Of a stretch of 64,000 bases of DNA, positions 56,117-64,000 are shown in pieces. Every line of letters begins with the position of its first letter. The first letter of the stretch is position 1. The notes beneath the pieces are model-generated. The model was not told the DNA's origin and did no database searches. It saw nothing but the letters and a program-made list of their open reading frames with translations. Source of the DNA: an uncultured Planctomycetota bacterium (GTDB taxonomy: Bacteria; Planctomycetota; Planctomycetia; Gemmatales; Gemmataceae); contig CAWKHF010000008.1 of assembly GCA_963849325.1 (NCBI GenBank), positions 1 through 64,000 on the forward strand, written 5' to 3'. The translations under genes were made by a program, and so were the position numbers.

Positions 56117-56543
56117 CTAGGGTCGCGAGCCATCCCCCTTCAACTTGCCTGCCTTCCCCGGCCGGCGCTGCTGCGTCTTCCGTCCCGGCCGATAGCCCGT
56201 CGGCTTGATCGGGCCGGCTCCACGCTCGCCAGGCTTCTCGCCCCTGGCCGGATTGCCGACCGTGTGGTAATGATCGCCCTCGACTGCCCGGTTGGCGGCC
56301 CTTCGCCTCGCCTCGATCGCCTCCCTCGGCGGGTTGGCCGGGATCAGGCAGTCGCACCCGCTGCCGATCAGGTTCTGCCGTCCGGCCTGGATGAGAGCCT
56401 CGCGCACCGTGAAGTAATTCTCCGGCTTGAAAAACCGCATCAGCGCCCGCTGCATCTTCCGGTCCCGAAGCCCCTTGGCAACATAGACCTCCTGTTTGCT
56501 GAACGGATCGATGCCGGTGTAATACATGCAGGTGGCGATGTCG
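56117..56543 (-). pseudogene. ygiQ: Displaced second copy of the ygiQ 3' end (DUF3362 region)
   Basis: [45 protein letters not shown]; paralogous to 62540-62940; similarity starts abruptly at CGACATCGCCAC. Confidence 0.88.
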
Positions 56544-56859
56544 TCGGCTATACGCATGAAGGTGAGTATATCCGGAGATCGCATCAAGCGGAAGCAACCG
56601 CCGACCGCGATCACCATTGCTGCTTTCCCCCGCCGATCAACGAGCGCTAGTTTCCCATTCGCTACGGTCGAAACCGCGCGTCTGTGTCGGACGTGTGTCG
56701 GGACCGAAGTGCGTGAACCCGAACTGTCGAGAGTTCGAGTCTTTCAGGGAGATCCGTCCATTTCTGGACACGATCCGAATCGCGATTCCTCGCCTGCAAG
56801 CTGTTTTTCGGACGATAGTTGTCGGCGGCTTCCCGTCAAAAGTAGCGGGAGGTCCGGGA

Positions 56860-57876
56860 TCATTTCATCAGCGCAAGATTTCGCCAAAGGCTCGCCAGAC
56901 TGTCCGTACCGCCGAAGAGCGTGGTGAAGTGGGTGGAGTCGATGAGCAAGATGTCACCGGCTCGTTGTTCGGTGGACGGCATCCACAGCAGGCAGTTGAA
57001 CTCCTTGTTGCCCGCAGCTGTGAAGGGGTGCGGGCGGTCGGGGTCGATGGCCTGCCGGCCCAGGACATGCACTGAATTCGCGTCCTGGGCGGTCACTTCG
57101 TAATGCGGCAAGTGCAGGTGGAAGTTGAATGTGGTGACGTTATTCAACAACCCCAACTTGTCGAGGTCGCGGAAGGCAGTCAGCGGCGCGATCTCCTTCG
57201 TCCCTTTCACGACTGCGGGACGGAGTCCCCATTGATTGATGACCGGGACGTTGAGCGCCTTCATCAGCGAGCGCGTGTATTGGCTGAATCGCTGCTGGCG
57301 AGGCACGAGTTCGTCGCCGTGGTGGCGATATTCCACCTGCCGCTGCTTCGCGTCGTTGGTGAAACCGACGTCGTGGTGGGGGGCGAGCAGCAGACAGGTC
57401 CCTTCACGTTTGAGCCACTCGCGGATCGCGTTAATTTCGCCCGGCTCCGCTTCCTGTTCGGCGACGAGGTGGTCCAGGCCGAACACCATCAACGTGTCTG
57501 TGTCGGCCAGCACTCGTTCGTCAATCGGCAGCTTGTAACCGGCCTGGTCGATGCGCTGAAACACGGCGACGGGATGCCCGGTCGCCTCACCGACGATCTT
57601 CTGGAATGAAAGCGTAGACCGATGGAACAACTCCAAGGTTCCGCCGATGCCTTGTAGGAAATTCATCTTGTCCCACTCGGAGGCTTCGAAAGCCGGCCAA
57701 GCGACCCGGCGAACTTCGGTCATCGAGGAAAACCGATTGTCCATCTCGGTGAGATCGCGGTTCGTTTCCCACGGATAGCTCCAGGTCCAGTAGATGCTCA
57801 CGCGGCGTTTGCCGGGCGTGTGTTTACGGGCGATGTGGTCCTGGTTGTAAGTGCGAGCGCGTTGAGGTGTGATCAT
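56860..57876 (-). CDS. Conserved hypothetical protein of the DyP-associated cluster
   Basis: ARTYNQDH..RRVSIYWTWSYPWE, FQRIDQAG, LLLAPHHDVG, FNFHLHLPHY. Confidence 0.8.
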   Translation of the reverse strand: MITPQRARTYNQDHIARKHTPGKRRVSIYWTWSYPWETNRDLTEMDNRFSSMTEVRRVAWPAFEASEWDKMNFLQGIGGTLELFHRSTLSFQKIVGEATGHPVAVFQRIDQAGYKLPIDERVLADTDTLMVFGLDHLVAEQEAEPGEINAIREWLKREGTCLLLAPHHDVGFTNDAKQRQVEYRHHGDELVPRQQRFSQYTRSLMKALNVPVINQWGLRPAVVKGTKEIAPLTAFRDLDKLGLLNNVTTFNFHLHLPHYEVTAQDANSVHVLGRQAIDPDRPHPFTAAGNKEFNCLLWMPSTEQRAGDILLIDSTHFTTLFGGTDSLASLWRNLALMK

Positions 57877-61771: not shown

Positions 61772-62266
61772 TTACTTGTCTTCGCGGAGTCCGACCGGGT
61801 TGTCGTGATGATGAGCGATCTCGGGCTCGCTACTTTTGTCTGTCGAGTCAGCGCACGACGCTTCCTTGTTTTCCGCTGACTGCCTCCGGTGTGCTATGGC
61901 CACAATGCGATTCCCGACAGCCCGAACAACTATGCACGGAACAAGTGCGAGCAGCGTGGCCACGATCAGGGTCTGGACTGGATAGATCCAATGAAGGACG
62001 ATAATCTGGTAAATTGCATCTAGCACAAGCGCGACGAGAAATACCTTGCCGGCAATTCTCCACAGGTTTCTGAGCATGAGGCGCGTTTGAGTCGGGTCGC
62101 GTGCAAGGGTCCAGAAGAAGATCGGCCGACCTTCACGGGCATCCGTCCATCCCGCTCGAATCGCAAGAAATGTCGCAACAAAGGGCTGGATAATCAGCCG
62201 GAAGCTCATCGGTCCATCTACCCGACCGAAGAAATTATCCCACGCTTGCCTGAGTGCCTCTTCCAT
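61772..62266 (-). CDS. Hypothetical membrane protein
   Basis: GRVDGPMSFRLIIQP, DAREGRP, three hydrophobic segments. Confidence 0.75.
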   Translation of the reverse strand: MEEALRQAWDNFFGRVDGPMSFRLIIQPFVATFLAIRAGWTDAREGRPIFFWTLARDPTQTRLMLRNLWRIAGKVFLVALVLDAIYQIIVLHWIYPVQTLIVATLLALVPCIVVRAVGNRIVAIAHRRQSAENKEASCADSTDKSSEPEIAHHHDNPVGLREDK

Positions 62267-62539
62267 GGAACGACCACGCTCTGTTACTGGAGGAATCCAT
62301 CAGCATCGTTAAGCACATCCATGAAAGCCGGGAGCCAGTCCATGGCGGTGGGCGGTGATCCGCTTGAGCACAAACCAGGCCACGCCCGCCCACCGCATGG
62401 TAACGCAGACCAGCTTGCCCACAAATGAGCACCTGTTAAACTACTCCGTCTTCCGCCGCCTGGCCAGCCCCTGCCGGTTCTCGCGCCTTGCCCGGTCGCC
62501 GACTGTCGCCGCTGGGGAGGCATTCCCCGTGACCGCTGG

Positions 62540-64000
62540 CTAAGGCCGCAGGCCTGGATCCCTGCCGTTCCTCTTTCGCCGTTTCGCCGACTTTCGCCCC
62601 GGCCGGTAGCCCTTGTTCGGCAGGCCCCGCTCCCCAGGTTTCTCGCCCTTGGCCGGGTTGGCCACCGTGTGGTAGTGGTCCGGGTCGTTGGCCCGCCGCC
62701 TGCGCGCCTCGATGGCTTCCTTCGGCGGCTGGGCCGGGATCAGGCAGTCGCAGCCGCTGCCGATCAGGTCCTGCCGCCCGGCCTGGATCAGTGCCTCCCG
62801 CACGGTAAACCAGTTCTCCGGCTTGAAAAACTGCATCAAGCGCCCGCTGCATCTTCCGGTCCCGAAGTCCCTTGGCGACGTACACTTCCTGCTTCGTGAA
62901 CGGGTCGATGCCCGTGTAGTAAATGCACGTGGCGATGTCGAACGGCGCCGGGAATGAAGTCCTGCACCTGATCGGGGCGGTAGCCGTTGCGCTTGAGGAA
63001 GACGGCCAGGTCGATCATCGCGTGCAGGTCGCGAGCCGGGATGGCTGGCGATGTAGTAGGGCACCAGGTACTGCTTCGGCTTGCCGGCCTCGCTGCGACG
63101 CCTGCCTGAAGTCGCGCGGCGAAGCTCTCGAAGTTGTCGTTCTCCGGCTTCTTCATCAGCGCCAGCACGTGCGGGTCGGTGTGCTCCGGCGCCACCTTGA
63201 GATGGCCGCCGACGTGATGCTCGGCCAGCTCGCGCATGTACTCCGGCGACAGCTGGGCCAGGTCCATGCGGATGCCGCTGGCGACCAGCACCTTGCGGAT
63301 GCCCGGCTCGGTGCGGGCACGGCGCATCAGTTCGACCAGCGGGCCGTGGTCGGTGCCGAGCAGCTTGCAGATGGTCGGATGGACGCACGACAGCCGCTTG
63401 CACTTCGCCTCGACCTCCGGCCGCGTGCAGCGCATCTGGTACATGTTGGCCGTCGGGCCGCCGATGTCGCTGATGACGCCGGCGAACTCCGGGTCGGCGG
63501 CCAGCTTGCGCACCTCTTGCAGGACCGACTCTTGCGAGCGCGATTGGATGATGCGGCCCTGGTGGGCGGTGATCGAGCAGAAGGTGCAGCCGCCGAAGCA
63601 GCCGCGCATGATCGTCACCGAGTCCTTAATCATCTCGTAAGCGGGGATCGGCTCGGTGTACGACGGGTGCGGCCGGCGCGTGTAGGGCAGGTCGTAGACG
63701 CGGTCCATCTCCGCCTCGCGACAGCGGCAGGGCCGGCGGATTGACGACGACGGCCTGGCGGTCGTGGAACTGCACGAGCGTCTTGGCGTTGAACGGGTTG
63801 GTGTTGATGTGGATGAGGCGCGTCGCCTCGACGAAGGCGAGCTTGTCGGCTTTCACTTCCTCGAAGCTGGGGAGAACGATGACGCTACCAGCCCGGAGCG
63901 CCAGCGACGGGTCGGACCCGTCGCTGGCGCTCCGGGCTGGTAATGCTTCCGACTCCTTCGCCCCCAGCACATAGGCCACGCCGCGCAGGTCGCGCAGGTC
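62540..64000 (-). CDS. ygiQ: YgiQ family radical SAM protein (5' part outside the window; several frameshifts)
   Basis: IMRGCFGGCTFCSITAHQGR, SDIGGPTANMY, SGIRMDLA, LKVAPEH, PYYIASHPG, QVQDFIP. Confidence 0.93.
63886..63942. repeat. REP-type perfect palindrome inserted in frame within ygiQ
   Basis: 28-bp arms around 1 nt, 57 bp in total; reads LPARSASDGSDPSLALRAG on both strands. Confidence 0.9.

Follow-up and report, generated by a model that had tools for sequence, protein, structure and literature searches.

The lambdoid phage 21 and the prophage-type element e14 integrate in the 3′ end of icd in Escherichia coli by means of a tyrosine integrase, whereas SCCmec and recombinase-less pseudo-SCC (staphylococcal cassette chromosome) elements occupy the 3′ end of rlmH (orfX) and are moved by the large serine recombinases CcrAB. 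Genomic islands at tRNA and tmRNA genes leave arrays of displaced 3′ gene fragments. The attachment sites of large serine recombinases are ~40–50 bp long, with dyad symmetry around a 2-bp core. In planctomycetes, to our knowledge, few mobile elements have been described and few genetic tools exist. Here we analyse 64,000 nucleotides (nt) from an uncultured planctomycete of the family Gemmataceae (assembly GCA_963849325.1, contig CAWKHF010000008.1, positions 1 to 64,000; hereafter the window), in which the 3′ end of the radical SAM gene ygiQ, encoding the domain DUF3362, occurs twice, on either side of an islet of unrelated genes. We consider it probable (roughly 65%) that the codons for Asp-Ile-Ala-Thr-Cys (DIATC), close to the 3′ end of ygiQ, serve mobile DNA of Gemmatales and Isosphaerales as an attachment site that can be used repeatedly, and that the islet is a recombinase-less unit inserted there site-specifically with its own replacement 3′ end.

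As with phage 21 and e14, the proposed insertion lies in the 3′ part of a housekeeping gene, with what would be a diverged replacement end and the displaced end at the far side. Unlike those prophages, which have a tyrosine integrase and a shorter replaced segment, the ygiQ case involves ~400 nt, no recombinase or phage genes in the window insert and a serine recombinase in relatives. With SCC elements it would share a gene 3′ end as docking site, serine recombinases, a site that is regenerated, tandem stacking and the presence of some recombinase-less, dependent units; SCC repeats, however, are ~15–20 bp with no long replacement end, and for the unit in the window, which has a flank called type A below, no link to any recombinase was seen. 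Islands at tRNA and tmRNA genes also carry the 3′ part of their target and form tandem orphans, the oldest being furthest away and most decayed, but here the target is a protein-coding gene and the units are as small as ~1.24 kb. Finally, like integron arrays, small, mostly one-gene and mostly co-oriented units gather at one site behind a resident gene; of the cargo open reading frames (ORFs) named by Pfam in the scanned inserts, ~17 are co-oriented and 6 opposed, as tallied by hand. In contrast to integrons, no IntI, attI or attC hairpins and no tyrosine recombinase family were seen in the window or the scanned inserts, and the repeats are gene ends, 400 nt of which are carried by each unit. 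Elements of this kind have been described before; what is new lies in the details, namely the target, the phylum, a replacement end of 400 nt and arrays formed by tiny units that lack a recombinase. Judged partly from titles and passages, no publication that we found treats ygiQ or DUF3362 as an integration target; in the passages available, one merely lists an E. coli genomic region 'ygiQ..ftsP' (PMC12928451).

The two copies of the ygiQ 3′ end (Table 1) resemble each other from GACATCGCCAC to the stop codon. A repeat search resolved this similarity into three collinear blocks (56220–56290/62625–62695, 77% identity; 56291–56442/62687–62838, 84%; and 56442–56543/62839–62940, 87%). As the second-longest direct repeat within 54000–64000 is only 28 nt, the repeat cannot be ascribed to chance. 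Pairwise alignment placed the onset of strong similarity at CGACATCGCCAC (codons D-I-A-T) at 56543 and 62940, with at most scattered matches (CTTCAT, GCCG) in the 20 nt upstream, and its end at both TAG stop codons (56117–56119 and 62540–62542), with indels in the tails; identity is 83.2% over 300 aligned nt. A preliminary description of this DNA had reported a same-orientation repeat of ~400 bp with a sharp onset and diverged C-terminal tails, and both methods agree on the repeat, the alignment also on its limits. Pfam finds DUF3362 in both copies, and Radical_SAM and Radical_SAM_N solely upstream of the right copy; tblastn (E ≤ 10) found no third ygiQ tail in the window, including a decayed one near rluD. 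The insert is bounded by direct copies of the 3′ part of its target, of which the proximal one is in register with the body save for two single-base indels that are probably assembly errors, and the left copy lies in an intact ORF of 166 codons (56117–56617).

We collected relatives by searching the left copy against species-representative genomes. Of 568 confirmed matches, the best 80 were kept, corresponding to 78 loci (numbered with the prefix L), nearly all from Gemmataceae, Isosphaeraceae and other Planctomycetota, and these were compared with the window proteins by tblastn. We found 28 ygiQ tails without a preceding body (orphans) in 19 of the 78 loci, two of them at contig starts and not judgeable, and a further orphan remnant of 60 nt in L011. 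All orphans are on the ygiQ strand and, in each of the 13 loci that show both, downstream of ygiQ; L001 and L002 contain arrays with three extra copies each. Of the 26 that could be judged, 11 are intact-like, one of these with an in-frame stop at the junction, and the other 15 are truncated or broken. The genes between copies differ each time and include Uma2 nucleases, a globin-ankyrin fusion, a TPR protein, an AraC regulator, a glyoxalase, a kinase, a molybdopterin enzyme and others, with units down to ~1.24 kb that contain a single gene (L001, L002). The preliminary description had noted that stable synteny among relatives would speak against an insertion; instead, the window cargo had no match in any of the 78 loci (five proteins and the N-terminal half of the sixth, the oxidoreductase), and the inserts elsewhere are unrelated. 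In four distant relatives (L076, L078, L022 and L034), rluD starts 13–173 nt past the end of the ygiQ match, and in L048 it is immediately behind an orphan, so that ygiQ directly followed by rluD is likely to be the ancestral state. In Isosphaerales, a gene for an RsmB/F-type methyltransferase, not rluD, is found behind the last orphan (L001 10272–11702; L071 13332–14927), and the native downstream neighbour therefore differs between the orders.

The breakpoint is shared between these loci. Non-ygiQ DNA abuts the GAC or GAT of the D codon of DIATC in 18 of the 20 junction rows flagged as orphan, the window included; of the two exceptions, L065 proved to be an attached copy that had been misclassified, and L019_7980 retains ygiQ sequence upstream in degenerate form. 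A large protein collection contains 2,417 short DUF3362 proteins, and among the best 120, at least 86 have a non-ygiQ leader that ends at the D of DIATC. The rest comprise 21 pieces of whole genes, 3 proteins that start inside the repeat and 10 that the pattern did not anchor. Most leaders have a Met codon five codons ahead of the junction and an aromatic residue before the Met. A survey of orphan DUF3362 fragments had been suggested as a way to tell whether the breakpoint is conserved, and both sets of counts indicate that it is.

Next to the break, conserved flanks of several types recur from genome to genome. Type A, present at the distal junction in the window, was found in seven instances with an nhmmer profile (window, L001 twice, L035, L025, L010 and L071), each abutting an orphan and none standing alone; L010 and L071 were added by the profile. 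The exact 18-mer GATGCGATCTCCGGATAT lies 27–44 nt before the junction in five of these seven (window, L001 twice, L025 and L035); conservation extends over 110–190 nt among the non-window copies, and ~55 nt are common to the window and the others. The 13-residue type A leader resembles RPDQVQDFIPAPF of ygiQ itself, as if it had diverged strongly from it long ago. Type B flanks occur in L002 (twice) and L040, and type C flanks in L005, L025 and L028, with a remnant in L001. At three of the four type C junctions, an opposite-strand gene for a protein of 549–551 amino acids (aa) with Resolvase and Recombinase domains starts ~56–74 nt away; the proteins share 83–91% identity with one another, the L005 copy being cut by the contig end. 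Deeper in the element, L025, alone among the loci, also encodes a coupling protein of the TraG/VirD4 type and a ParB_N protein. An integrative and probably conjugative element is laid out in this way, its large serine recombinase beside its attachment site. L025 is also an example of stacking, the order being type C element, orphan, 2 kb of DNA, type A flank with remnant, and rluD. The 12-kb contig of L028 encodes a second, different large serine recombinase (588–2558; 656 aa), 2 kb from the junction-proximal one.

Other candidate components of the system fared less well. The octamer TGTGTCGG, present at 56683–56690 and again at 56694–56701, had been proposed as an arm-type site, a view that the comparisons do not support: it lies outside the ~55 nt shared with other type A flanks, recurs in none of the 78 loci and is not enriched, with a word count of 3 in the window versus 2 expected. 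A tblastn search of the orphan against plasmid and phage collections returned just distant full-length ygiQ genes. Four scaffolds labelled 'Bacteriophage sp.' were considered as attP candidates and rejected because they carry whole ygiQ genes.

We then asked of ygiQ itself where its two parts come from. The window body is closest to that of L033 (90.2% nt identity), followed by L020 (88.3%), and forms a sister pair with L020 in the body tree (support 98/93). In 100-nt windows, identity to L033 is 83–97% upstream of the junction and 73% from +50 on, whereas identity to L008 goes from 72–93% upstream to 88–89% in the windows from +50 to +199. Identity in the body exceeds that in the 3′ end by 11–16 points in the four closest pairs of the window, compared with 1–6 points in nine other pairs with bodies at least 88% identical and a mean of 5.1 points in 32 other pairs at 84% or above. 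L001 is a cleaner and independent case of a chimera: its attached end is 90% identical to that of L010, the bodies being 81% identical, its distal orphan is Isosphaeraceae-like, as is its body, and its affinity switches between −30 and +60 of the junction. In both cases that could be placed, the switch is at the very start of the 400-nt homology, as a site-specific crossover predicts and as would be unlikely if crossovers were spread along it.

On the basis of these comparisons, we propose that the incoming DNA would be a circle consisting of a conserved flank, the element's own last ~400 nt of ygiQ and cargo. Site-specific recombination at the junction, which a large serine recombinase may carry out for type A units as well, would join the host body to the 3′ end of the element, leaving the gene whole but chimeric. 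The cargo would be placed behind ygiQ, and the previous 3′ end would be left downstream as an orphan, with the flank of the element now before it. As the rebuilt gene would hold the site again, further insertions could stack, the newest beside ygiQ, and old orphans would decay. In the window, the newest unit (56543–62939) would comprise the right copy, six redox-type genes and the type A flank and, having no recombinase, could be either the decayed form of an element or a non-autonomous unit that is mobilised in trans. The preliminary description had reached the core of this scheme, namely ygiQ as the target, a long 3′ end brought by the element, a resulting chimera and a recombinase that is lost or acts in trans. 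The shared breakpoint, the variable cargo, the ygiQ–rluD ancestry, the type C recombinase ~56–74 nt from the junction and the affinity switch in the window and L001 lend it comparative support.

Several observations weigh against this proposal. It was noted earlier that the ~6 kb between the copies encode no recombinase, and we confirmed that, among the six minus-strand ORFs in the 6.4-kb islet, Pfam, NCBIfam and Atlas identify no recombinase or transposase family. None was found elsewhere in the window among 111 ORFs of at least 170 aa, and the serine recombinases of relatives had no tblastn match there. The suggestion to look for recombinases near orphans was productive at three of the four type C junctions and at none of the seven type A flanks, the window's included. 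No element was seen whole with both ends, and an element-borne 3′ copy next to a recombinase, as the scheme would have it, was not observed. Dyad symmetry at the junction, tested without gaps, did not exceed background (orphans 6.9 of 12, attached copies 6.5, random 6.1), with 1 of 20 orphans reaching 9 of 12; by eye and post hoc, type C has a near-palindrome, CATGCAAAGTGGC versus CATGCA-GGTGGC, with one bulge and a 15-nt spacer centred on the junction. The left orphan is 72.7% identical to the tail of L033 and 74.7% to that of L020, which does not bear out the expectation that the orphan is the native end; aligning both copies to close relatives, proposed as a way to find the ancestral one, showed that neither resembles the 3′ ends of the relatives with the closest bodies. 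In approximately unbiased (AU) tests on the 3′ end, grouping the right copy with L020 was rejected by a narrow margin (p = 0.043), in favour of the chimera, and neither grouping the left copy with L020 (p = 0.066) nor pairing the two window copies as sisters (p = 0.23) was rejected. Grouping a window copy with L020, L033 and L043 was strongly rejected, a result confounded by the fact that those three form no clade in the 3′ tree; the AU test on the body used a group named after the 3′ tree had been seen. Finally, ygiQ as assembled is broken by three frameshifts, such that the chimera is not an open frame. The earlier claim that the present YgiQ is chimeric is therefore strengthened by the identity switch and the excess divergence and weakened by the borderline AU values and the broken frame; we regard a chimeric ygiQ in the window as likely, not proven.

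A related scheme, which we consider unlikely as it stands, is that the locus collects cassettes. In this view, the large serine recombinases encoded by conjugative type C elements would act in trans on small non-autonomous units, each made up of a conserved flank of 50–190 nt, a copy of the ygiQ 3′ end and one gene or a few. With the site regenerated at every insertion, arrays would grow in an integron-like manner, and co-oriented cargo would be read through from ygiQ. The displaced end would gain the start codon in the flank and be made as a stand-alone DUF3362 protein. As the attachment site would then lie inside a small element-borne gene, both recombination products would stay ORFs.

The main rival to site-specific insertion is homologous recombination of the Campbell type, in which a circle with a ~400-nt ygiQ fragment recombines anywhere along it by a RecA-dependent crossover. 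The breakpoint would then be constant only because the edge of the captured fragment is inherited, and a dedicated recombinase would be unnecessary. The lack of a recombinase in all seven type A units would follow naturally, the copies are long and similar enough (83%), and copies within a genome cluster in L002, suggesting exchange. Moreover, the resemblance of the type A flank to a diverged continuation of ygiQ (compare RPDQVQDFIPAPF) would set the edge of usable homology. This model does not readily explain why flanks with no relation to one another (A, B, C and others) share an end point to the nucleotide, why a serine recombinase lies ~56–74 nt from the junction in one flank family or why the affinity switches within ~60–75 nt of the junction in both placed cases (window and L001), and we judge it distinctly unlikely.

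Could the orphan instead be a stable, stand-alone DUF3362 paralogue with its own start, produced by local partial duplication, and the genes in between ordinary neighbours? In its favour, the ORF of the left copy is intact, most leaders contain a Met five codons ahead of the junction, the database holds 2,417 short DUF3362 proteins and the two window copies may be sisters. Nevertheless, truncation or breakage affects 15 of the 26 orphans that could be judged, the cargo is different in every genome, arrays have up to four copies with different flanks and the body and 3′ end are incongruent, all of which make this explanation improbable. A crossover at the stop-codon end, with the attached copy native, the orphan element-borne and DIATC an internal landmark of the element, is very improbable. 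In L001, the 50 nt around the stop codons, up to 18 nt past the stop, show 96% identity between the attached copy and the first orphan, and the left orphan of the window does not look native, as this model would have it. Against it, the repeat in the window loses its similarity at the stop codon and no common core follows, the anomalous part there is the attached copy, not the body, the distal orphan of L001 fits the host lineage, and the recombinase gene adjoins the DIATC junction, more than 450 nt from the stop end.

The frameshifts bear on the quality of the assembly. The right copy, joined to the body, is interrupted by two single-base frameshifts, one near 62945, where a C/G run shortly before the junction is one base too long, and one near 62838 (an extra T), and a third frameshift in ygiQ lies near 63708. 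Splits of one gene into two overlapping ORFs by a single frameshift were seen at 12212–13676, 17504–18573, 43844–45296, 55115–56018, 57824–59304 and 62540–64000, and the genes split in this way include those for the esterase, the flavoprotein oxidoreductase of the cargo, a protein kinase, MnmA and a 3-hydroxyacyl-CoA dehydrogenase. At the two frameshifts that we read at single-base level, a short homopolymer run has one base inserted. This suggests that the assembly is indel-prone and probably based on long reads; because housekeeping genes are broken throughout the 64 kb, the frameshifts in ygiQ are probably assembly errors and not biology. The many splits might raise the suspicion that the repeat is itself an artefact, a mis-join or a duplicated contig end, a possibility of negligible weight given that the differences between the copies, at 17% of positions, respect the codon structure, that they are bounded by the junction and the stop codons and are not near-identical copies (83%) running into non-coding flanks, and that the same architecture is present in 19 independently assembled genomes, the complete chromosomes L071 and L048 among them.

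If insertion at DIATC is confirmed, a precise, reusable site in a near-universal gene would mark recently acquired genes in Gemmatales and Isosphaerales and would offer candidate pairs of recombinase and attachment site for engineering planctomycetes, which are hard to manipulate. Tundrisphaera sp. TA3 (L071) and two Singulisphaera strains (L045 and L070) are represented by complete chromosomes that are not labelled as metagenome-assembled genomes (MAGs), and are probably cultured isolates. For databases, most of the ~2,400 short 'DUF3362 only' proteins appear to be displaced gene ends and not a family of their own, and annotators may note that YgiQ 3′ ends in this group would often be imported.

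The region downstream of the left orphan suggests more than one round of insertion. The esterase gene directly after the orphan is 87.6% identical (nt) to that of L011 and 86.6% to that of L002, compared with 80.4% and 74.6% for the ygiQ bodies, and in L011 a type A-like flank and the 60-nt orphan remnant stand right before the esterase. These similarities hint that the esterase travels with insertions, and it is probably the cargo of an older one. Because the esterases are more alike than the ygiQ bodies and L011 has a flank and remnant before its esterase, we infer a layered locus, in which the left orphan and the esterase would be an older unit, the right copy with the six genes and the type A flank the newest, and the native tail lost. 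L011 was considered as an empty site and rejected, as it has a 452-codon ORF of its own and the orphan remnant before the esterase.

Every gene from 52.8 kb to the end of the window is on the minus strand. The order in the direction of transcription is ygiQ (entering from beyond 64000), the six cargo ORFs, the left tail, the esterase, a DUF4058 protein, a small ORF and the rluD-like gene (Table 1). Pfam family scans of the window identified no conjugation or mobilisation genes. Rfam searches of 54000–64000, L001, L035 and L025 returned just palindromes matching miRNA models far under threshold, so the flank is not a known RNA, and a promoter and terminator scan of 55900–63000 gave counts not above those in shuffled sequence.

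Table 1. Features of the ygiQ region and of the genes compared with it (window coordinates unless a locus is named).
Feature	Position	Strand	Basis or remark
ygiQ body (Radical_SAM_N PF08497, Radical_SAM PF04055)	62940..64000	-	Pfam; leaves the window; two frames, frameshift near 63708
Proximal junction (attL-like)	62920..62960	-	GAC of D-I-A-T-C at 62939; onset of similarity to left copy and affinity switch
Right copy, DUF3362 3′ end joined to body, putative replacement end of the insert	62540..62939	-	Pfam; identity shift
Predicted membrane protein, 164 aa, no known family	61772..62266	-	No family in Pfam or NCBIfam; no tblastn match in 78 loci
185-aa protein, no known family	61192..61749	-	Atlas look-alikes are unnamed clusters, score 0.97
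SnoaL-like protein	60708..61139	-	Pfam PF13474, 3.4e-5
DyP-type peroxidase	59386..60756	-	Pfam DyP_N; TIGR01413 2e-24, under cut-off
Pyridine nucleotide-disulfide oxidoreductase (MerA / lipoamide dehydrogenase class)	57824..59304	-	Pyr_redox_2 and Pyr_redox_dim in two overlapping ORFs, one frameshift; NCBIfam
ThuA-like (glutamine-amidotransferase-like) protein, 348 aa	56860..57906	-	No Pfam or NCBIfam match; Atlas 0.99 to 'ThuA-like domain-containing protein' clusters
TGTGTCGG twice, proposed earlier as arm-type site	56683..56701	+	Judged to be outside the conserved flank
Type A flank at distal junction	56543..56666	-	18-mer GATGCGATCTCCGGATAT at 56568-56585; in-frame ATG 5 codons ahead of junction; nhmmer E 2.6e-26
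Left copy, orphan ygiQ 3′ end, in-frame intact	56117..56542	-	Pfam DUF3362 8.2e-21; TIGR03904 C-terminal 45 positions
Esterase directly after the orphan, one frameshift	55115..56018	-	Pfam Esterase
rluD-like pseudouridine synthase	52795..54015	-	Pfam; likely ancestral downstream neighbour of ygiQ
Esterases compared	window 55115-56018; L011 12017-12897; L002 18996-19908		
Uma2-/DUF4058-type putative nucleases	window 26658-27401, 27447-28328, 54311-55021; L002 10499-11242, 11765-12484; L001 9342-10127		

Some genes recur in these surroundings. Putative nucleases of the Uma2 and DUF4058 types are found as cargo of small units and elsewhere in the window (Table 1), and both types may simply be abundant. 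Two MAGs share a globin-ankyrin fusion gene immediately after the ygiQ 3′ end: in L007 (549–2006) it makes up a single-gene unit of 1.5 kb, and in L014 (3209–4654) it comes first among the genes of a 5.7-kb insert.

The window also contains a dispersed palindromic family that resembles repetitive extragenic palindromic (REP) sequences, at 63886–63942, 6942–7000 and 19013–19066. The 16-mer core of this repeat is absent from 82 loci. The copy in ygiQ lies in its N-terminal domain and has perfect 28-nt arms; its 57 nt correspond to 19 codons, in frame, and the other two copies are hairpins related to it.

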